From contig OX597826.1 of the NCBI GenBank assembly GCA_951406725.2, forward strand, positions 30,628,001 through 30,692,000: a stretch of DNA of 64,000 nucleotides, read 5' to 3'. Made by a program: the position numbers and the translations under genes. The DNA comes from Octopus vulgaris. Lineage: Eukaryota. Numbering within the stretch: position 1 is the stretch's first letter; each line of letters opens with the position of its first letter. The notes below the pieces were generated by a model. It was not told the origin of the DNA, ran no database searches, and worked only from the letters and a program-made list of their open reading frames with translations. This document shows, in pieces, positions 3,927-62,453 of this stretch.

Positions 3927-4830
3927 ATGCAATTTTAAGTTACCTACGGACGTACGTTTCGAGATCAAGCTTTAGGATATCATAAGAATTATGATCTCGA
4001 AACGTACGTCCGTAGGTAACTTAAAATTGCATGATGGATTGCCGTCATTTCATTCTTTCTTTCTTACCTGTCTGTGTTTGCCTTTTAAGTGCTGTGTTTT
4101 TACTGAGATCCCCCCTTTTAGTAGAAGGAATAGCTATATCTCTTTGACTGCTATTTCTAAATTCGGTGTGTTGGTGAGGCAATTCGTTGCTAAACCCTTA
4201 ATTACTTAGTATTACTTAAATTTTCCTCGAATGGGGCTTTTACATACCGAAATCTACTTGGTGTAATTGATAATTATCCCTAATTAATTAATTTCACCCT
4301 TTTATTATTACTGATAACCATATTTTATCCCAGTAAATGACCACAGCATTTTGTCTTGGCCGCACGCGGGTGGAAGGGGGCTGGTGACACAAACTTTCAT
4401 TCAAACTTTGAATTTCGTGGTACTGGTCATGCTTTGGCTCGCTCTGACACTGAGTTGAGATGACGCATTCTAGTATCTCAAAATTTAATATACAATTATT
4501 CACAATTGTAGTATCCTGCGCCGATGAGAGAAGAAGTCTGGGTAAAGTAGAATTTTCTAATTCTTATGATATCCTAAAGCTTGATCTCGAAACGTACGTC
4601 CGTAGGTAACTTAAAATTGCATGATGGATTGCCGTCATTTCATTCTTTCTTTCTTACCTGTCTGTGTTTGCCTTTTAAGTGCTGTGTTTTTACTGAGATC
4701 CCCCTTTTTAGTAGAAGGAATAGCTATATCTCTTTGACTGCTATTTCTAAATTCGGTGTGTTGGTGAGGCAATTCGTTGCTAAACCCTTAATTACTTAGT
4801 ATTACTTATATATATATATATATATATATA
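3927..4830 (+). mobile_element. non-coding PLE/retrozyme-like element: inverted 5' fragment + 590-nt partial tandem + (TA)n
   Basis: 227-bp direct repeat 3992-4218 / 4582-4808 (1 mismatch seen). 3927-3991 is the reverse complement of 4558-4622. Contains a hammerhead. Confidence 0.8.
4515..4606 (+). ncRNA. type I hammerhead ribozyme (U4C core variant, long stem II)
   Basis: Stem I CCTGCG/CGTAGG; core CCGATGA; stem II GAGA...TCTC with a long hairpin; GAAA; palindromic stem III ACGTACGT; cleavage triplet GTC ending at 4600. Confidence 0.75.
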
Positions 4831-6246
4831 GTATTCTTTTACTGGAATGGTGTTGAGGGTGACTTTGAAATTTCAGCTTGATACGACATTGTCAGACAGT
4901 CCGAAACTTCGAAGTCACTATCAATGCCATTTTTATTAATGGCTAGTGAATGTGTATGTACTCTGCAAAAAGTGTTGTTGAATCCTTCAGTTAAATGTAA
5001 AATTGTTTTTAATATAATCCAACATGAAGGCAACGAGCTGACAGAATCGTTGGCAAACCGGGAAAAATGTTTTGCAGCATTTCGGCAGTTTCTACGTTCT
5101 GAGTTCAAATTCCGCCGCGGTCGGCTTTGACTTTCATCCTTTCGAGGTCGATAAATAAGTACCGATTGAATACTATAATCGATTTATCCCCTCCCAAAAT
5201 TGCTGGTCTTGTTCCGATATTTTAAACCAAAATAAACATAAAAACAAACCTTCGCTCCTTTTTTTTTTTTTTTTTTTCGTTCTCACTCCATTGTTTTTCT
5301 TCTCAATGTTATCTGTGAAAGAGCGTAGGCTCGAAACGTCAAAGCTTTTCCCATTCTTTTCGAGCGTTAAACTAATACACATGCTTATTGTTCCCTCACC
5401 TGTCTTCGTCTTTTGTTTTCTCTAAATTTGAAATTTATATATATATATTCAAAAGAAAATTCAGCGAGGTAGACATAAAATTTAATACATTAATTTATCA
5501 AACTTTCAAGATATACAAAACAAATGGAAGGAAATTCGTAAACATTTCAATGGATTCAAACGTAATTAGCGTTAATTAAAATTACAGCTGATTATCTCTT
5601 TCTCTGCGACTTCCATTGTGTTCTGTCAAACACAAAGAGAGAACGAATGAAATGATATATAGCAGCTTTCTCTTCACCGCCTCTTACTTTATCTACGAAT
5701 AGTATTCTTCAGAGATTGTCGTCGGATTGTGTTTAAAATGATGGCAATTAGTTATCGTTAAGAGTTTAATATTTAATTACCTGGAGGAATTTCTTGTGAC
5801 ATTCAATAAAAACTAAGCGAGTACACTCATTGGTAACCTGTTTCAATGAAATGTCTAGCCTCATGAATAGTTTTATAAGTTTCAACATGCGGTTCATGAG
5901 CAAATGCCAATTACTGTAACAAACGTCTGTGTATAGAATGAAACATACACGAAATAAGCGTTTGAATTCCTTCGTTGGCAATGGCTGTTTTTGTAGTGTA
6001 TCTAATCGGTAGTAATACGTGATTGGCTCTTTACACTATTGACAAAAGCAACGTCTATCCAAAATATAGGGTTTGGGACTGTTTTGGAGGCAGTATCTAA
6101 GGGCTTCCACGCATATATATATATATATATATATATTACGTTTATATATATTTTTTGTTCAAGATTTTTTATGTTAAGTCGTGTGTTGAAACAGACATTG
6201 TTGTATTTCGGAATGGTCATTTTGCCAGTTTAGCCAATAAAAACAC

Positions 6247-34456: not shown

Positions 34457-34631
34457 TCATGTGGTACTGACATTAGATGAGCCAACGCAGTTGAGATTGA
34501 AAAGGATAGAGCGCAGGTTCAGTTCTAGGAAAGAGTAGTCTTGTTGATTAGAACTGCAAGTAGAAGTGGAACGACTTAGTTCCTGGATCAATGCTGTGAT
34601 GGAATACACATCAAACAGCTTTTTGTTATGC
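34457..34631 (-). CDS. CCDC138: CCDC138 terminal coding exon
   Basis: Acceptor tcttttcag|G, then (R)HNKKLFDVYSITALIQELSRSTSTCSSNQQDYSFLELNLRSILFNLNCVGSSNVSTT* with TGA at 34459-34457. Resembles the recalled vertebrate CCDC138 C-terminus (NKKLFE...FLCINLNSTLFNL). Phase matches the preceding exon. Confidence 0.88.
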
Positions 34632-34891
34632 CTGAAAAGAAACAAAAATATAGCATATAGATATATATATAGAAACATATAGATATACATAGAAACATAT
34701 AGATAAATATATATAGAAAAAGTAGATATATAGAAAAAGTGATAAGATTTTTCTTCATTTAGAAGAATGATAGTAGTGATGGTGATAGATAGGTAACCAA
34801 TAACAATAAATGGTAATGATGGTGAAGGAAAGAAGGAAGGAACCCCGCCCTTCAGTGCTTAAAATATAAGAAATAACTGAATTAGTCTTAC

Positions 34892-35082
34892 CGAATTTTT
34901 GAGAGTTTCTGCAAAATGATGCTGAGTTTCTCAAATATTTTATCATCCATATTGACTGCACGCAGCACTACAGCAACCGTCCGGAACCAAGTTTCATTGC
35001 TGCAACTCGTTAGGAATTGGTTCAAATGAGGAGACTCCATTGACAACGGCAAGAACACGTCAACGGCATTGTTAACCAGAGT
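34892..35082 (-). CDS. CCDC138: CCDC138 penultimate coding exon
   Basis: aatttcag|...|gtaaga, 191 nt (63 codons + 2 nt): TLVNNAVDVFLPLSMESPHLNQFLTSCSNETWFRTVAVVLRAVNMDDKIFEKLSIILQKLSKI(R). Contains the CCDC138-like EKLSIILQKLSKI. Missed by the ORF track. Confidence 0.9.
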
Positions 35083-35371
35083 CTGAAATTTAGGAATCTT
35101 GGGTCATGATTCTCTTAACATTTTGGGGGTCAATGTTACAAAAGGACCAACACTCTATCTGCACAGTATCAGTTACACACAGACTCATTTCACACCAAAA
35201 GCTGTCTTTTACATGTACACTTGACTGGCTAGAATTAGCAGCCTAATTTCCTTCAAATCACACCTGATGATCTTATAAAAGTATTCCAAAGTCAGCTTTG
35301 CTGTTAATCCTGCTGTTCACTTGAAATTGTTGGCCCTGTGCTTGAATGAGAAACCATTATTATTATTATTA

Positions 35372-35426
<55 letters not shown>

Positions 35427-36269
35427 ATTCTGAGTTCAAATTCTGCCGAGGTCAACTTTCGTTTTCATCTTTTCGGGGTTGATAAAATAAGTACTAGTTG
35501 TACACTGGGGTCAATGTAATTGCCTCATCCCCCACCTCCCCTAAGCTGCCCTTGAAGCAAAAGCTTGAAATTATTATTATTATTATTATTACTATTCTTC
35601 TTATTATTATTATCATTATTATTATGAAATGCTTAGCAGTATTTCGCCTTTGCTACATTCTGAGTTCAAATTCCATTGAGTTTGACTTTGTATTTCATCC
35701 TTTCGGGGTCAATAAAATAAGTACCAGTTACATACTGGGGGTCAATCTAATTGACTCATCCCCCCACCTCCCACAATTTTCAAAGGTAGTGAACTGGCAG
35801 AATTGTCAGCATGGAACTCAAAATTGATAAAGTGTGTAGAATAATGGTTAGCATATCTGTCATGGATCCAGATGATGTGGGTTCAAGTTACACATGCAAC
35901 CTTTAGCTTTTTTTTCCCCATCCAAGATAAATTAGCTGTATTTAAGAAGCACATCCATCAATAGAGGCCTCGTGAGAAAATTAACCACATGAACAAGATG
36001 CAGTCCTGTAATTCCCCTAAGGAAGCAGTGCTTCCAATTATGCCCTGACTTTGACCAAGGTAACCCATCCAGGTCACACAACCATAGAAAACATACATGA
36101 ACCCACACATGCACAAATACATATACAAAGAAAAGCATACACACATATGCATATGTACACACACACACATGCATATGTACACACAGAAACATACACAGAT
36201 TTGTCGCAAATGAACAAAATCTCGCAAAAGCAAAGAATGAGACAGTTAAAAAGATTTCAATTGTCAAAC

Positions 36270-36394
36270 CTTGTGAATGGGTTTCAAATACTGCAACACA
36301 ACAGGAGTTCCTTGATAAAAGAGGAACAATTCTTTACCACGATCAGATTTCAGCTCATTCTTCAGGTCATCGAGTACATTGGCTAAGAAATCCA
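36270..36394 (-). CDS. CCDC138: CCDC138 antepenultimate coding exon
   Basis: aatttccag|...|gtttga, 125 nt (2 nt + 41 codons): DFLANVLDDLKNELKSDRGKELFLFYQGTPVVLQYLKPIHK, similar to recalled DYLAQAFDSLCLDLKTEEGKTLFLEYQAVPVILSHL. Phase-0 end fits the next exon. Confidence 0.88.
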
Positions 36395-38811
36395 CTGGAA
36401 ATTGGAAATAAAAAAATTAAAAAATGTATATGTTATTCTTTAACTTGTTTCAGTCATTTAACTGTGACCATGCTTGAGTACCACTTGTAGCCAAACAAAT
36501 CAACCCCAAGTCCTATTCTTTGTAAGCTTAGTACTTATTCTACCACTAAGTTACAGGGGATGTAAACACACCAGCATCGGTTGTCAAGTGATGGTGGGGA
36601 GACAAGCACAGATACACAAATGCATATGTGTGTATATATATATATCACCATGATCACCATGATCGACCAGGCTATCAGATGTTGCTACACATCACTGGTC
36701 ACAATGTGCTTCACATTGTTTTAGCCTTCAAGTGACGTTACCTCGCTTGCTAAGCAAACAGGCCAACAGAAGAAAGAGTGAGAGAGAGTTGTGGTGAAAG
36801 AGTACAGCAGGGATCACCCCCCCCCCTACCAGAGCCTCATGGAGATTTAGGTGTTTTCACTCAATAAACACTCACAACGCCCGGTCTGGGAATCAAAACT
36901 GCGATCCTACGACTATGAGTCCGCAGCCCTAACCATTGGGCCATTGCGCCTCAACTTATATATATATACAAATGTGAGTCAAAAAGTAAGACCATTTTGT
37001 TTAGGACAGGTTATTCAGGTTATAAAATTCCTTTTTCTTTTAAGTATTCCCCCCAGAAGGGGTAAGCTTCTATACCTCAACAATTACAAGTTGGCTCTTT
37101 TTGTACTATGCTTGTTTACAATATTTTTGCCATGGGGAACTTATATGGAGGATGATGTGTTTCTTTATGAAGCTGAAGCTCACCTTTATAAATATTACCA
37201 GCTGCTGAACAGGAGTTGAACAACTGGTATCATTTATGGTAGTTTTCCAAATAATTTCAATAACACCAAATAGGAACAGGCTTAAACCACAGTGACTCAT
37301 CCGATCCATGCTAGCATGGAAATCCATACATGCACACAAATTGACATCACTGGCTTGAGTGCAAGGACTCATAGGACAGGTTACTCAGCTTCCATGGTGC
37401 ATAATTGACTGAGATGATAACATTTCCCCTGGATAAGATGTCAGTCCACCACAGGATTACAGGTTTAGAGCCAGCTGGACTGGAGTAACACAAGAACACT
37501 ATGCACCTCCTGGTCCAAAGATAGAAACCATGTTCTTGTGAATGTGAGTGCAACACCATAACCATAAGGCAATGCATCTTCACATACGTATGTGTCAAAT
37601 GAGAGTGTGTATGTGTATGCATGTGCCCGTGTGTATTTTTGTGTGAGTGAGTGTGTATAGACACACAGACATCTTTTATCTATTATCTTTTACTTGTTTC
37701 AGTCATTAAACTGTGGCCATGCTGGGGCACCGCCTTGAATTTTTAGTCGAATGAATCAACCCCAGTACTTTTTTTTGTAAGCCTAGTACTTATTCTATCG
37801 GTCTCTTTTGCTGAACTGCTAAGTTACAGGGATGTAAACACATCAACACTGGTTGTCAAGCAGTGATGGGTGAACAAAGACATATACACATAGATATATA
37901 TACATATATATATTTGACAGGCTTCTTTCAGTTTCCGTCTACCAAATTTACTCACAAGCACACAAACACACACACAAACATATACGACAGTCTTCTTTCA
38001 GTTTCCGTCTACTGAATCTACTCACAAGGCTTTGGTTGGCCCATGGCTATAGTAGAAGACACTTGCCCAAGGTGCCATGCAATGGTACTGAACCCGGAAC
38101 CTTGTATACCATCATAATCCTTTAACTTCTGTCTTCCATGCTGGAATAAGTTGAATGGTTCAACAACATCCTCAAAGCCAGAGGACTGCAGTGAGCTCCA
38201 ATGTCTGCTTCGTAATGCCAGCCACTCTACAGGCTGCACTAAGTGCTTTTCTCCATGGCACCAACACTAGTGAGGTTACCAAGCAACTCACAAGACAAGA
38301 TCCTCCACACACACACACGTGCATCACATACATACACAGACATATATGCTATAAGAGGCACACTCGCTTCACCTGTCAGAAAGTATAGAAATACCTCCAA
38401 ATGTGACCAGATCTGGTTCAACATTCAAATATATCATTTCACACATGTTCACAGGGGAAAATGGCTATGGAATGGTGATGGTGATGGTTGTGGTGGCGGT
38501 GGTGGTGATGGTGGCAGTGGTGGTGGTGTGTAATGATAATACTTCACAATTACAAAGAAGGAAGGTGGGAAAATAATAACAAAACTGAAATATATTATAA
38601 TGATGGGAATAGTTTAATACAATTAAATATTTCGTTATCTGTGTGATGTATGTGAGCATTATTGAGAGTATATGTATATAAGCATTAATGTGTGCAAATA
38701 TATATTTATATATATAGATATGTAATATATACACAGATACACACACACATAATATATACATACATATATGTATATATATATGTGTGTGTGTGTGTGTGTA
38801 TATATACATAC

Positions 38812-48790: not shown

Positions 48791-49349
48791 CATCATCATC
48801 GTTGTAACCACAGACATAAAAACCTGGACAGGAAGAATGGTTCGGTGCTTCATGCTTTTCTTGCAGAATATATCACTTACACACGAAAGTACGCGTGCAT
48901 ACATGTGCAACATTAAGCATCAGTATACAGCATGTTTGCATGCATGTGCACTCAGTGTTAAGCGCATGCAGACAATATGCACGTATGTGCACTTTTATGT
49001 ACATGTAGATGGCATGTGTACAGGTGTGCATCTATGTGCAACACGATGTAAGGTGCATACAGGTGCTATGCATGTATACAGCTACTGCACTTTGAACTGT
49101 GTCACCTGTTGCAGCAAATGCACAGCATGTACAAGAGATATCTCTAATTGCTTTTAGTGTCACAGCAATATATTTGTAAATGCATTTCTTAGCTACATAA
49201 TAAATTTTCTTTTATGGCATATATTTACAAGAACATGCCAACAAATTTCGGTACGCTTAATATATAATGTTTGGCGGAAGAAGAGAATGTTCAACAAAAT
49301 TTCAAATTTACATTTGATGAATATATTTGTCCTCATCTTGTTTATTGTT

Positions 49350-49395
49350 AACACAACATTTCGGCGGATATACCCTCCAGCCTTCATCAGGTGTC
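49350..49395 (-). ncRNA. minimal type I hammerhead (slightly decayed twin)
   Basis: gacac-CTGATGA-a-GGCTG..CCGCC-GAAA-tg-TT-gtgtt. Confidence 0.65.
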
Positions 49396-49468
49396 TGGGG
49401 GAAATTTCGAGCCTGGGTTCTCATTCCTAAGGTATTTTTCGATATTATTAAGAATAATAATAATGGTA

Positions 49469-49503
<35 letters not shown>

Positions 49504-49593
49504 AACGATAATAATAATAATAATCATAATAACAACAACAACAACATCGAAAAATACCTTAGGAATGAGAAACCAGGTTCAAAATTTCCCCGA

Positions 49594-49639
49594 GACACCT
49601 GATGAAGGCTGGAGGGTATGTCAGCCGAAACGTTGTGTT
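49594..49639 (+). ncRNA. minimal type I hammerhead ribozyme
   Basis: gacac-CTGATGA-a-GGCTG..CAGCC-GAAA-cg-TT-gtgtt; canonical core with palindromic AACGTT. Confidence 0.8.
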
Positions 49640-50834
49640 AACAACAAACAAGATGAGGACAAAAATCCGTCAAATGTAAATTATGTAAATAATTTGGCAT
49701 AAATTCCAACCACTTTACATAGTGTACCAGCTGCTTTTCATGTAACAACAAGATGTGGGTATGTATGTGTATGCACCAATGTGCAATAATGCAGACACTT
49801 CACTTACCACCGTTTGAGTATAGCAGCACTGATGTTAACATTCCTTGTTGACATCATGAGTGATAGCTCTGTGCTTTTGAATATAAAATCCCTTTTCTGT
49901 AAGCAAGTTGGTGACAGGAAGAGCATCTAAATGTAAAATCCCTCAAATCCAGACCACTCACGCTGTTATACAACCACTGTAACTGTAGACACACTAGTAC
50001 CCTCTCTCTCTCTCTCTCTTAGAGACATGCTTTAACAAAAGCCAAGAGGTGCCTTACTCCCAGTGGTCATATTTCCAAGCCCTTGGGCTATTATTAGGTA
50101 GTCTTTCACACTGCATTAGACATATCCTTCTAGATTTCTACCAACCTTCATAAGGCAAGCCAACTGAATGGTTTAGGTGCCAACAACCTAACCATGCAAG
50201 CGTAACATGTAGCCCATGTATTGAACTACATGTTAGAACTCCATAAATGGCATCATGGCAATTATCATCATTATCCTTTATGCTGGCACAGATTGAAAGG
50301 TTTGACAGGAATTGACAAGCCAAAGAGTCACACTAGACTCCATTTGTCTTCCTAATGCCAACTGCTTTACACAAAGTACTGGGTGCTTCTTAAGTGGCAC
50401 CAGCATGGATGTGGTACCTGTACCCAATATTAAAAAAAAAAGAAATTATGGGAGTAGGATACATTACAGATTTTTAGGTACAAAAAATAGTGAAGGAACC
50501 ACATTATATGCATGATTCCTTTGTACAATACAGTAAGCCAAAAATGCCCACCACATCTGCTGGTCTTCAGCAAAATAAATTCTGATAATTTTGCTGCAAT
50601 AATTATATTAGACTGAATTAATTTATTTCTCATAAATTGCTTCTCTTAATTAAGTTTTCCTATTAAGTGTGGCTTGTCTGTATGTCTCCTGATAAAGATT
50701 CTCACCCACTCCAATACTGTAAATAATGGTTATGAAACTGAGATACAGGAATGATTTATAGTAGGTGTGGGGCTTGGGAATGGATAGCGTTAATAACAAG
50801 CACTGCAATCATACCACAACACTACACAACATAA

Positions 50835-54105: not shown

Positions 54106-55596
54106 TATATATGCATATATATGTATGTATATATGTATGTGTGCATGTATGTATGTATGCATGTCTGTATGCATGCATGTATGTATGTACGTATGTATGT
54201 GTGAGTGTGTGTATCTAAGCAAAGAAAGGTTATATATAAATGTATATGTATGTTCAAGTGTTACATGTGCATGTTTTTACTATAAATTATATTTATCGGT
54301 GTCTGTTGGTCAAGGTAGACAATGCATAATAACATTTTGGTGCAGTTGTGAGCAAGATATATTTTAGAGGAAGACTGGTTGTTGCCCCTGAATGCGAGTT
54401 TCCCCTTTTTAATGCTACCAATGTCTTTCCAAGGGAAAGGCTGTTGTCTTGTACTGATACAACTTGGCACCAGTATCATTGCAGCAGAACATAAAGAGTA
54501 GAACAAACACCACAAGGCATCTAATAGGACCCTTCTCTAATAGTTCTATTGATCTACCTTAAGATTAGTAACCTTTTTTTTTAGAACAACCCTGAAAAGA
54601 CGAAAGGCAAAGTTGATTTCAGCAGGAATTGAACCCAGAGCACAGAGAATTTGATAAGATAACCTGAAGAACTTTAATCCTTACAGTGATCGTTACTATC
54701 TCCATCATTATCATTAATTGTCTGTCTTCCATGCCGGCATGGGTTGGACAATTTGACAGGAACTCGCAAGCCAGAGAACTGTACCAGTGTCTGTTTTAGC
54801 AGTGGTTTTACAGCTGGATGCCTTTCCTAACACCAACCACAGACTGAAATGTGTGTTTTTATGTGGCACCAGCATCATCATCATTAAATGTCTGTTTTCC
54901 ATGCCGGTATGGGTTGGACAATTTCACAGGAGCTGGCAAGCCAGAGGACTGCACCACTGTCTGGTTTGGCAGGGTTTTTACAGCTGGATGCCCTTCCTAA
55001 CACCAACTACAGACTGAACTGTGTGCTTTTATGTGGCACCAGCACTGGTGAGGTCACCAAGTAACATGCAAGACAAAGATCCCTCGATTGAGATGTGGAG
55101 TGGTATTGAGGGTGGTGGCCTTATGCTAGGTGATGAGAGGTCAGGGTATGGAAGAGGGACAGAAACAGGTGTTTCACTGTAGAGAAGATTCATGGTTAGC
55201 TCAGCTGGAGGGAGACAGCAAGAGAAAGAGAGTGTGAGAGGGATGGTGGTGATGTAGGCATACTTGAGCGCTTACTCTCAAGGTACAAGGATGTGAATAT
55301 AAATGTAATGGGAGAGGATTGCCCAGGGTGCATGAGTAGGGAGTTAACGAAAGTGCAAAATCAAGAAACGGTCAGGGTAGGGGGAGCGCAGTGAGGGGGA
55401 GGGGAAACAAAGGTGTATGCGGTGGGGACCGATAGGATAGCAACGATACAGTTGGCAGGGGTAGGACAGGAGAGAGAGAGAGATGACAAAGCGGTGTTGG
55501 GCTGCAGGAGTGGGGAGGGAGAGATAAGCACAGGGCATGATGAACAGATGTCGTTTGATTCCTTGTCCCCCAATTCACTGACCATTCTACGTTGGA

Positions 55597-55952
55597 AGGA
55601 CACACATACACACACAAAAATATGAAAGGCAAAGCTGGCACTGGTGGGATTTGAACTCAGAGCACAGAGAAGCAGAACAAATAATACCCTAAGGCACTTT
55701 AAAATCAAATGCTCTCATAGTGCTTAGTCAAGAAGTTGTCTATAGTGAGTTGAGAGCATGCAAACTCTCATACATAACATGGTGATAGCTCCATCTTCTT
55801 GACTAAACACTAGGAGGGCATTAGATTTTAAAGTGCTTTAGGGTATTATTTGTTCTACATCTCTGTGCTCCGAGTTCAAATCCCACTAGTCACAATTTAT
55901 GTCAGCTTTGCCTTTCATATTTAAAATTTTGTGTGTGTATGTGTGTGCTTCC
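55597..55952. repeat. inverted duplication (~150-bp arms) of an old SINE-containing segment
   Basis: Arms 55597-55743 and 55786-55952 are imperfect reverse complements. Confidence 0.75.
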
Positions 55953-56424
55953 TTGATGCTAACCCACCTGAAACTGCCTCTGGCTTTGTTGTACAAATGT
56001 CTTGTTTGCATAAGTTTTGAATTAAAATCTTCCATCAAACCTTAGTCACAATTTATGTTCTTAACACTAGCTTAATGATAACCAAGTTATTTTATTAAAT
56101 TCTTTGTTATATTTAAAATTAATTGAAAGAAAGACAAAGCATCTCAACACAAATACAGTAACAAAAGGATTAGAATATATAATAGAGAAACAATTCTTAA
56201 CCCTTTTGATACCAACCCACCTGAAACTGCCTCTGGCTTTGTTGTACAAATGTCTTGTTTTCATAAGTTTTGAATTAAAATCTTCCACCAAACCTTAGTA
56301 ACAATTTATGTTCATAACACTAGCTTAATGATAACTAAGTTATTTTACTAAATTCTTTGTTATATTTAAAATAATTAAAAGAAACCCAGAGCATCTCAAA
56401 ATAAATACGGTAGCAATATGGTTA
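55953..56424 (+). mobile_element. two tandem piggyBac-type MITE copies
   Basis: ~220-bp unit at 55953-56173 and 56197-56424; TTAA-CCCTTT start and decayed AAAGGG-TTAA-like ends. Confidence 0.7.
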
Positions 56425-56464
56425 TTCCTGTTTCAGATCAGCATAATCTGAAGCAATGGTGACT

Positions 56465-56923
56465 GACAAACGCTCACGAGAGCCCATGAAATAAATGGCA
56501 CAAACTGTCTATCTATATGCGTAGACGCCAGACTGGGTGAAAGCAGAAGAGAATGTCCGTTGAGATAGTTCGAGGTCAGAATCCGGTTAGCAGAAGGGGG
56601 GTACAGGAAAATCAAAGAGTGTGGATGTATTCTGTATGACTGGTGTTTATATTTGAATTATTTTAAGAATGAGTGCTAGAGTGTTTGAGTGTGAGAAATT
56701 TAGCACTCTAGCACTCATTCTTAAAATAATTCAAATATAAACACCAGTCATACAGAATACATCCACACTCTTTGATTTTCCTGTACCCCCCTTCTGCTAA
56801 CCGGATTCTGACCTCGAACTATCTCAACGGACATTCTCTTCTGCTTTCACCCAGTCTGGCGTCTACACATGTAGATAGACAGTTTGTGCCATTTATTTCA
56901 TGGGCTCCTCGTGAGCATTTGTC
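56465..56923. repeat. near-perfect 219-bp-arm palindrome
   Basis: Arms 56465-56683 and 56704-56923, 20-nt spacer, few mismatches. The ORF track shows mirrored translations. Confidence 0.95.
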
Positions 56924-56965
56924 GAAAAGCTTGCTGTGCATTTTGTTGGAGAATTAAGTTCCTGG

Positions 56966-57051
56966 ATTTTCCTGAAGAGAAGGCTGCAAAATGGACTCCT
57001 TATTCAATCCGAATTAGGGACTTTGCAGCCTTCGAAACATATGTAGAAAAT
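56966..57051 (+). ncRNA. intact type I hammerhead ribozyme
   Basis: Stem I ATTTTC/GAAAAT; CTGAAGA; 12-bp perfect stem II GAAGGCTGCAAA/TTTGCAGCCTTC with an extension; GAAA; palindromic stem III ACATATGT; cleavage triplet GTA ending at 57045. Confidence 0.9.
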
Positions 57052-57337
57052 AATAAAAAGGAATTTTGTTAAATCTTCGTTCAGCTCCATTTCTTCCTAC
57101 ACTTAATATATAAAACTTCAAATTTCCGCACTAAGGCACGGATTTTATGCCCCATGGTCGTAACTTCAACAGTGCTTTTTCTGTTGTGATTTTTGCTACC
57201 CAGGTATCGGTTATCATTTGAATTATCCGTAATAAGATAATTCATTTATCTACTTCAATATGTATATATATATCAAATCACCTGGGCATTAACACAGGAT
57301 CTCCTAACAACAATGTAAACTTCATATAACCAAGGTA

Positions 57338-57430
57338 CCCTTGGCCTGAAGAGTAGCTCATGGTCCACTCCTCGTCTGGATAATTACTACTTCTGAGGTT
57401 CTACTAGCTACGAAATATATGTAGTCTGGG
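57338..57430 (+). ncRNA. type I hammerhead ribozyme (partly decayed)
   Basis: cccttggc-CTGAAGA-GTAGCT...AGCTAC-GAAA-tatatg-TA-gtctggg. Confidence 0.7.
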
Positions 57431-57456
57431 TCTTATCTACTCCATTCCCTAATTTT

Positions 57457-57492
<36 letters not shown>

Positions 57493-61152: not shown

Positions 61153-62453
61153 ATATCAGGTCATGAAGAATGAAATATCCTATTTTGAACTGAAAGTTTA
61201 TTTTACTTATTTTACTTTATCTCAACATAAAGCAATGCAATTAATCAAAGTATGCACCTAAATTATCAACACGACTTTGCCATTTTACCAGTAGCTTATT
61301 TATGCCGGTAGCAAAGAATTCTAGAGAGTAAGAGGTGACGAAGTCGCGAAAGGCTGTTTTTGCATCTTCTTCAGATTTGAAGTTTTTTCTTGCCAAAAGT
61401 TGTCTTATGCCTGAAAAATGCGATAGTCAGTTGGTGTAAGGGCTGAGGAATAAGGTGGATGACAGAGTACTTCCAAGTTCAGTTCCAGTAACTTAAGTAG
61501 CATTCTTTGTGCAACATGTTGTTGAGTATTGTCTTGCAAGAGAATCGGTCTGTCTCTATTGACCAATCTCAGTTGTTTAATTGCAAGTTCATTCATCATT
61601 TCATCCAATTGGTTGATGTATACATCTGCTGTAATTGACTTACCAGGTCTCATGAAGCTGTAGTGGATGATACCAGCGCTGGACCACCAAGCAGACACCA
61701 TTAGCTTTCTTTGATGAATATTCTGTTTTGGATTGTGCTTTGATACTTTGTCTCTATCCAACCACCATGCAGAATGCTTGCTAGTGTTGAAAAGAATCCA
61801 TTTTTCATCACACATAACAATACAATGCAAAAATGGTTCACTTTTATGCCTGGACAGCAAAGAACAGCAAGTTTCAAGATGACATGTCATTTGATGCTCG
61901 TTCAGTTTGTGTGGTATCCACTTGTCCAGCTTCTTTACCATGCCGATTTGTTTCCGATGGTCCAATACAGTTGGAATCAAAACATCAAACCTTGCTGCTA
62001 ACTCATGCATAGTTTGAGATGTATCCGCTTCCACTACAGTTTCCGGTTCATCATTATCCACCTTGGTTTCAGGTCTACCACAGGGCTGATTTTCAAGAGT
62101 AAAGTCACCAGACCAGAACTTCTCAAACCATCAACATACATCTTCACCAAATGCCACATCTTCACCAAACACCTCATTGATGTTTGGAGCTGTCTGAGAT
62201 GCATTGGTTCCACTATGGAACTCATATTCATAAACAACACAAATTTTTTATCTATCCATGGGAACACAGAAATTCATTTACAAGAGAAAACCCACAATAT
62301 AATCAAACACCATGAACTGCATTTCAAAAAGTGATTATGTAAGTCTTCAATGTTTTAAAACAAAGAATTGTCAGGATAAAACATTAGAGTTAATGACTGT
62401 CAAGCTTGGTGCATAAGAAAATCGGACATTGCATTCTTAATGACTTCATACTA
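61153..62453 (-). mobile_element. full-length decayed mariner transposon (~1.3 kb)
   Basis: Imperfect ~30-bp TIRs (GTCATGAAGAATGAAATATCCTATTTT vs reverse complement GTCATTAAGAATGCAATGTCCGATTTT) around a transposase. Confidence 0.85.
61241..62259 (-). pseudogene. mariner (D,D34D-type) transposase pseudogene
   Basis: WIPHKL, CDEKW, LQDN and HPPYSSALTPTDY motifs; in-frame stops near the N-terminus and at 61405. Confidence 0.92.

Follow-up and report, generated by a model that had tools for sequence, protein, structure and literature searches.

What kind of mobile sequence leaves a near-perfect inverted repeat directly before a hammerhead motif, and is that motif likely to work as a ribozyme? 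Both questions arise at 56465-57258 of a 64-kb stretch of Octopus vulgaris DNA (the window, to which all positions refer), where a first-pass annotation had proposed a young insertion of the kind left by Penelope-like elements (PLEs). The element probably lies antisense within a long intron of the host gene CCDC138, assuming that the remaining exons of this gene lie beyond the window. Its last three coding exons occupy 34460-36395 on the minus strand, with a splice acceptor before the first of them; an exon at 34891-35103 shares 94% identity with CCDC138 from Octopus sinensis, and residues 1-435 of CCDC138 were not found in the window.

Results

Depth profile of the locus

Twenty of 24 public runs listed contain part of the stretch, under four organism labels and one metagenome label, and we compared the contigs of four of the 24, namely X1 and X3 (DNA) and X14 and X16 (presumed RNA), leaving out among others an insect-metagenome run with a 0.04 share. 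Summed contig depth was 10^6 over a very abundant repeat ending at ∼56437 and near zero at 56438-56480, where low cover in X1 carries no evidential weight. In X1 and X3 it lay at ∼10^3 to 2 × 10^4 over the two arms of the palindrome and at 0.7-5.6 × 10^5 over 56911-57254; past a short TA tract it was ∼1-2 × 10^4 over the repeat at 57274-57458. The high plateau marks a hammerhead-bearing unit of ∼350 bp (56911-57258, plus strand; the start is approximate, being a bin edge), which we take to be pseudo-LTR-like. Its depth relative to the arms was 35.5 in X1 and 23.7 in X3, and in both DNA runs the depth fell about 12- to 22-fold over the TA tract at the 3′ junction (57259-57273), the probable target, where the element had been correctly annotated to end. 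Scaled to one zero-difference contig of depth 55.9, the arm would have ∼150 copies, the hammerhead unit 4000-5000 and the downstream repeat 200-300; as summed contig depth is not copy number, these figures are trusted for magnitude order and ratio alone. One X1 contig (record 6, 57244-57399, no differences, depth 55.9) crosses the TA tract, with 30 letters to the left of 57274, one under our 31-letter rule for crossing.

The hammerhead HHR1

Within this unit lies a type I hammerhead, HHR1 (56959-57063, plus strand). As annotated, its helix I starts 43 nt after the end of the right arm, and its canonical core is present on the plus strand as CUGAAGA (56972-56978) and GAAA (57034-57037). Helix I (56966-56971/57046-57051) consists of six Watson-Crick pairs, five of them A-U, and a distal helix of 5 bp (56959-56963/57059-57063) is predicted beyond an internal loop. 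Twelve Watson-Crick pairs (56979-56990/57022-57033) form helix II, which is capped by a further hairpin, for a total of 55 nt, while helix III is formed by the self-complementary ACAUAUGU (57037-57044). The perfect stems I and II and the palindromic stem III claimed earlier could all be retraced, and the GUA triplet places the predicted cut where it had been expected, after 57045. HHR1 thus has the features of the type I class: a CUGANGA core, GAAA, an NUH triplet, three helices and an open helix I. It also keeps the G10.1-C11.1 (56979-57033) and A15.1-U16.1 (57037-57044) pairs. Since much of the family depth has T at 57033 (46-100% of the summed depth, among the 40 of 141 variant rows listed), this copy, with its G10.1-C11.1 pair, stands nearer the canonical form than many of its relatives. 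The family also varies at 56982, and the 40 of 141 rows include no matching change at the paired position.

A descriptor requiring at least 5 pairs in helix I and at least 8 in helix II gave one match in the 64-kb window and none in 150 windows resampled from its local dinucleotide (Markov) composition. Likewise, none of 200 shuffles was as stable as the fold of 56940-57080 (z = −3.4). In nearest-neighbour folding the predicted catalytic secondary structure takes a 2.9% share for 56950-57070, or 8.8% if helix III is not required; with more flanking sequence the share drops to 0.03-0.2%. The computed energy of the helix III homoduplex is −7.0 kcal/mol. HHR1 is a probable self-cutting RNA. By analogy with known hammerheads, its cleavage is expected to be slow as a monomer and better as a dimer formed via the 8-bp palindromic helix III, and the long helix II probably excludes the usual contact between loops I and II. 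A contig of X16 (record 24, 56957-57091, one difference) spans HHR1 uncut, in a run whose strand and RNA origin are uncertain. As the host gene is read from the opposite strand, HHR1 is likely to be a mere passenger at this locus.

How does HHR1 relate to hammerheads already described? Rfam hammerhead models gave no match at gathering score in the whole window, nor at E ≤ 10 in 56400-57400, a range that takes in HHR1 and part of a second hammerhead, HHR2 (see below). The catalytic core is that of Rfam hammerheads by direct reading, so that the term 'intact' used in the first-pass annotation holds for the sequence but is not backed by an Rfam hammerhead match even at E ≤ 10. None of the 17 Rfam matches obtained in this range at E ≤ 10 reached the gathering score; the best were miRNA precursor models over the hairpin, all below that score, and a miRNA reading was rejected.

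The minimal hammerheads of PLEs (PMC4209133) share with HHR1 the type I topology, the CUGANGA and GAAA core, the G10.1-C11.1 pair, a palindromic helix III, a U-rich 5′ flank and an AU-rich 3′ flank. In that study helix II of PLE hammerheads has up to 7-8 bp, with low activity in vitro, and the descriptor allows 3-7 bp and a loop of ≤ 10 nt; the helix II domains of HHR1 and HHR2, in contrast, measure 55 and 59 nt, and the annotated departure of stem II from the minimal form agrees with this source. HHR1 further differs in its 2-bp helix III with a tetraloop, its 6-bp helix I with a distal helix and the lack of an extra nucleotide after A9 (between 9 and 10.1). The minimal form calls for a helix II of 3-8 bp with a short loop, an extra nucleotide between 9 and 10.1 and a helix III that is minimal or absent. 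Judged by sequence, HHR1 falls outside this definition because of its long helix II, and in helices I and III it resembles canonical type I hammerheads of invertebrates rather than minimal ones. When spacings modelled after the published descriptor (PMC4209133) served as a filter, only the hammerheads at 49.4-49.6 kb were recovered, and both HHR1 and HHR2 were missed. Elsewhere, the 'long helix II' of PMC13725137 means 6-8 bp, and PMC6962438 gives 235 Rfam hammerheads in giant squid. The literature on octopus, cephalopod or long-helix-II hammerheads, of which subscription papers are thinly covered, yielded no description of this form; existing repeat libraries, including the octopus library, may already contain the HHR1 family.

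Motif searches beyond the octopus gave an exact 22-nt motif in no viral contig and a 26-nt degenerate motif in no metagenome contig, and a loose core pattern at six metagenome loci and one viral locus (L007). We dismissed the six metagenome loci as chance matches, since none of them shows helix I or II flanking the core or resembles the element in DNA sequence.

Coding capacity and identity of the element

The element had been said to lack credible coding capacity, and this was borne out. None of the 28 stop-free frames of at least 25 aa in 56400-57470 reaches the Pfam cut-off, and searches with two frames support no protein relative. For the frame 56730-56954, none of 47 candidates among longer proteins reached E ≤ 0.1; the frame 56875-57069 gave one match (E = 1e-4 among 1.84 billion proteins), a Cna-B repeat surface protein, a relationship that pairwise BLAST (E = 0.36) did not support. 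A search for an autonomous partner, as once suggested for this element, was equally negative: Pfam found no reverse transcriptase (RT) or GIY-YIG domain in the element, nor in the window's filtered frames, of which the 150 longest out of 244 were scanned.

We consider it likely that a 5′-truncated copy occupies the locus, either of a Penelope-like retroelement family or of a non-autonomous element that such a family mobilises. Endonuclease-containing PLEs (Penelope/Poseidon, Neptune) are described as having a head-to-head inverted 5′ copy, a 5′ truncation gradient, a type I hammerhead in the terminal repeat, an AT-rich target and often no target-site duplication (PMC8557442, PMC3846280, PMC8969392), all of which recur here. 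The 3′-terminal repeat is far commoner than the sequence before it, measured as a depth ratio and not as true copy number; HHR1 lies inside this high-copy unit; and an inverted head-to-head 5′ copy is present, shorter than an inverted pseudo-LTR. Against the PLE reading, the inverted copy stops before the hammerhead and leaves out the 3′ end, whereas the pattern described is usually an inverted pseudo-LTR, and the 30-40-bp tail of PLEs was not identified. Because the searches returned no RT or endonuclease partner, PLE membership is unproven; as a truncated copy need not carry RT or GIY-YIG, their absence from the element itself is indecisive. Two words read by eye downstream of HHR1, a TATA-like one at 57103-57117 and a potential splice donor (CAG followed by GT) at 57202-57211, would be expected if the unit were a pseudo-LTR with a promoter and the start of an intron.

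Could the 350-bp unit instead be the monomer of a non-LTR retrozyme, arranged in tandem elsewhere, self-cleaving, circularising and mobilised in trans, so that the locus is a dispersed monomer with extra sequence upstream? Such repeats are described from Mytilus, coral and axolotl as low-GC, non-coding units of ∼350 bp in thousands of copies, with canonical-type helices I and III, and mussel retrozymes comprise about 5000 hammerheads in 350-390-bp repeats (PMC7229834). The octopus unit (∼348 bp, GC 0.36, copies on the order of thousands) matches them, as do its helix I (6 bp and an internal loop) and helix III (2 bp and a tetraloop), both of canonical invertebrate type; contigs of the two presumed RNA runs also cover the unit, with no firm bearing on expression or cleavage. 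Retrozymes form head-to-tail tandems of 150-450-bp units, each with a hammerhead, and give abundant, highly self-paired circular RNA. The octopus unit is not repeated head to tail at the locus, and upstream of it other copies carry arm sequence instead of the unit's own end. Folded as a circle it pairs with itself only weakly (z = −1.8 against 60 shuffles, 58% paired), and no go-back joint of ∼350 nt occurs among the 15 of 113 joints listed. A retrozyme monomer is the main rival to the PLE reading, and we regard it as unlikely. Since retrozymes have been proposed to be PLE derivatives (10.64898/2026.07.22.740005), the two readings differ in part only. Among the family contigs, 43 records of X1 and 33 of X3 diverge at 57091 into AT-rich letters, probably marking a shorter subfamily that ends about 45-60 nt past the cut site.

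The palindromic arms

If the insertion is PLE-related, is the palindrome part of it? The left arm (56465-56683, minus strand, 219 nt) repeats the insertion's 5′ part in inverted, head-to-head orientation. It is separated by a 20-nt spacer at the fold-back point (56684-56703) from the right arm (56704-56923, plus strand, 220 nt), the low-copy upstream part of the element, which in other copies continues colinearly into the hammerhead unit. The near-perfect inverted repeat with 219-bp arms was confirmed: the arms differ at four of 220 positions, by three substitutions (56471/56917, 56516/56871 and 56520/56867), two of them CpG-type, and a 1-nt gap (56480/56908). The left arm begins exactly where the unique flank (56464) meets the repeat, and the spacer is bordered on either side by short GAGTG/CACTC repeats. 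No target-site duplication was found, the left flank having no common string of ≥ 5 nt with any of three candidate right ends.

Both arms carry states at 56815/56572 and 56864/56523 that are rare in other copies. Among the 40 of 141 variant rows listed, the C of the arms at 56815 faces T in 2616 of 2731 units of other-copy contig depth in X1 and in 2350 of 2473 in X3, and the T at 56864 faces A in all contig depth of all four runs (one or two contigs each). Two rare alleles common to both arms point to a single template for both. At the three arm substitutions, by contrast, the family state is that of the left arm (at 56917, G in 77648 of 80027 of the depth in X1; at 56871 and 56867, each run contributing one or two contigs), and at the gap it is that of the right arm (one contig, X3), so that each arm has changed after the fold-back.

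Other contigs connect the arm to the hammerhead unit. X14 record 15 (56737-56960, 11 differences) and X1 record 5 (56804-56933, 12 differences) run from the arm across 56923, and X14 record 16 (56893-57078, 25 differences) from the arm into the unit. At least three contigs from diverged copies thus pass 56923, so that arm and hammerhead unit are one element. This makes it highly improbable that the palindrome is separate from the insertion, whether as a MITE-like or fold-back element or through later, repair-type duplication in inverted orientation, with the hammerhead repeat an independent neighbour. The outer end of the arm (56923) does lie near the depth jump (bins 56868-56953), and DNA repair is reported to yield fold-back duplications in other systems (PMC7467729, PMC11724301); yet 56465-56923 as a discrete unit has no flanking target-site duplication, and the exact start of the left arm at the border of repeat and unique sequence speaks against it as well. 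A MITE or fold-back DNA transposon was rejected on the same absence of a duplication and on the continuation of family copies past 56923.

We give very little credence to an assembly artefact such as a fold-back chimeric long read. In its favour, none of the contigs listed from the four public runs crosses the left junction or the palindrome centre, the arms are identical over their inner ∼160 bp, and complex PLE insertions are reported to trouble assemblies (PMC8557442). Read errors, however, would not be expected to sort as the arm differences do, with ancestral and derived states found on either arm and two CpG-type changes among them; and the window contains two further palindromic repeats, older and diverged (arm identity 81% and 78%). 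The palindrome is probably biological.

The arms also date the insertion. With a distance of 0.09 set to 25 Myr, as quoted in PMC13282606, the three substitutions over 219 sites correspond to 1.9 Myr (range 0.4-5.6); CpG sites push this figure up and gene conversion pushes it down. All four differences sit in the outer quarter of the arms (p ∼ 0.004), which may reflect conversion near the centre, in which case the estimate would come out too young. By sequence divergence, the element is a fairly recent copy with a rough age of ∼2 Myr (range 0.4-5.6). The earlier term 'young' is apt to that extent, but a very recent insertion is not supported, its arms having drifted at four sites.

Proposed route of insertion

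By what steps could a PLE-related insertion take this shape? With the enzyme and the order of steps inferred from the PLE literature, a PLE protein would nick the TA tract, and uncleaved RNA would be reverse-transcribed from ∼57258 through the hammerhead to ∼56690. The new strand would then fold back on itself, self-primed at the short GAGTG/CACTC repeats, and 220 nt would be copied back before the strand was joined to the other target end. The ribozyme would act as in type I hammerheads of PLEs and retrozymes, the monomer having a 2-bp helix III and an AUAU loop.

Elements of this route have precedents. PLE insertions are often flanked at their 5′ end by an inverted, 5′-truncated copy, and pseudo-LTRs typically carry hammerheads (PMC8557442); palindromes are found at head-to-head PLE junctions, for which self-priming has been proposed (PMC3846280); and AT-rich targets and pseudo-LTR hammerheads are both described (PMC8557442, PMC3846280, PMC4209133). 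The main in vitro insertion substrate of a PLE is unprocessed RNA (PMC11167929), which fits copies that retain the whole ribozyme, and Penelope families are listed among the recently active repeats of Octopus vulgaris (PMC13282606). What was annotated as a recent PLE-type insertion with 5′ inversion stands as a mobile copy with an inverted duplication made from one template, and its assignment to PLEs is probable. The '5′ inversion' is indeed inverted and is, in full, a fold-back duplication of the 5′ part; as it stops 43 nt short of the hammerhead, the inverted copy holds no second ribozyme. Taken together, the insertion architecture is ordinary for PLEs, and the ribozyme is a modestly new variant.

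A second hammerhead downstream

The neighbouring repeat (57274-57458, plus strand, start approximate), which ends at (AT)16 (57459-57491), belongs to a second, lower-copy family and contains HHR2 (57339-57430, plus strand), a decayed type I hammerhead absent from the first-pass annotation. The hammerhead proper spans 57346-57423, with the core starting at 57346, a 59-nt helix II domain and a predicted cut after 57423, 378 nt from that of HHR1 on the same strand. In local folding its helices have a pairing probability of 0.02 or less, and there is no local hammerhead fold. The family majority alleles are C at 57416 (11150 of 13381 of the depth in X1), with which helix III is identical to that of HHR1, and C at 57425 (15380 of 17544), with which helix I has a Watson-Crick pair. 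Helices I and II are present in both hammerheads but built from different sequences; both helix II domains contain ACUCCU, and outside the cores the two align about as well as shuffled sequences (score 47, against 38 ± 6). Helix II domains of 55 and 59 nt in neighbouring families indicate a trait of two families rather than a quirk of one copy.

Might a plus-strand transcript be cut at both 57045 and 57423 through a helix III heterodimer, releasing a circularisable 378-nt RNA as a nascent chimeric retrozyme? The two hammerheads do lie on one strand at this distance, their palindromic helices III are near-identical (heteroduplex −5.1 kcal/mol, versus −7.0 for HHR1 alone), and the joining sequence is present in X1 at single-copy depth, but this seems extremely unlikely: the two families, with their ∼13- to 22-fold difference in depth, are joined across the TA tract and align beyond their cores only at shuffle level, this copy of HHR2 is decayed, the 378-nt inter-cut circle is not unusually structured (z = −1.3) and the known host transcript runs on the opposite strand.

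Other repeats in the window

An older head-to-head palindromic repeat at 49305-49682 (81% arm identity) has a short-helix-II hammerhead in each arm; the core at 49599 (plus strand) has a palindromic helix III, ACGU, and in the one at 49390 (minus strand) the palindrome and helix II are altered. Three of the four hammerhead cores in the window (49390, 49599, 56972 and 57346) are on the plus strand, antisense to CCDC138, and the sole sense copy is decayed, a bias that fits selection against self-cleavage in host pre-mRNA, with n = 4 too small a sample. A third head-to-head palindromic repeat (55594-55952, 78% arm identity) is apparently SINE-like. Next to it, 55953-56424 holds two adjacent copies, 253 bp apart, of the extremely abundant repeat with a summed depth of 10^6; its ends resemble TTAA-CCC...GGG-TTAA, pointing to a piggyBac-type MITE. 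The window also contains a mariner-type transposase remnant at 61408-62130 (minus strand; Pfam Transposase_1, E = 4e-23) and a 170-bp repeat tandemly duplicated at 54703-55044, the copies 89% alike.

Discussion

What does the locus mean for ribozymes in cephalopods? A probably abundant hammerhead type that escapes standard searches implies that cephalopod ribozyme counts may be too low. HHR1 lends itself to testing, on a natural sequence, what a long helix II does to cleavage, and HHR1 and HHR2 together to testing for pairing between families through one palindromic helix III; the locus also dates a fold-back insertion from its own arms. In the host, the arms would put a near-perfect hairpin of 220 bp into an intron, plausibly a substrate for A-to-I editing.

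A broader reading, which we put forward tentatively and rate as distinctly doubtful, is that at least two octopus families, one of them probably with thousands of copies, encode active type I hammerheads in which a helix II domain of 55-60 nt is functional and a shared, self-complementary helix III allows heterodimers through which the families activate one another. If it is true, Rfam and the published descriptors overlook both families. The long arm, in which ACUCCU is kept, would then serve in a different tertiary contact, or be bound by the RT that mobilises the element, and adjacent insertions such as those of HHR1 and HHR2 could seed new circular RNAs.
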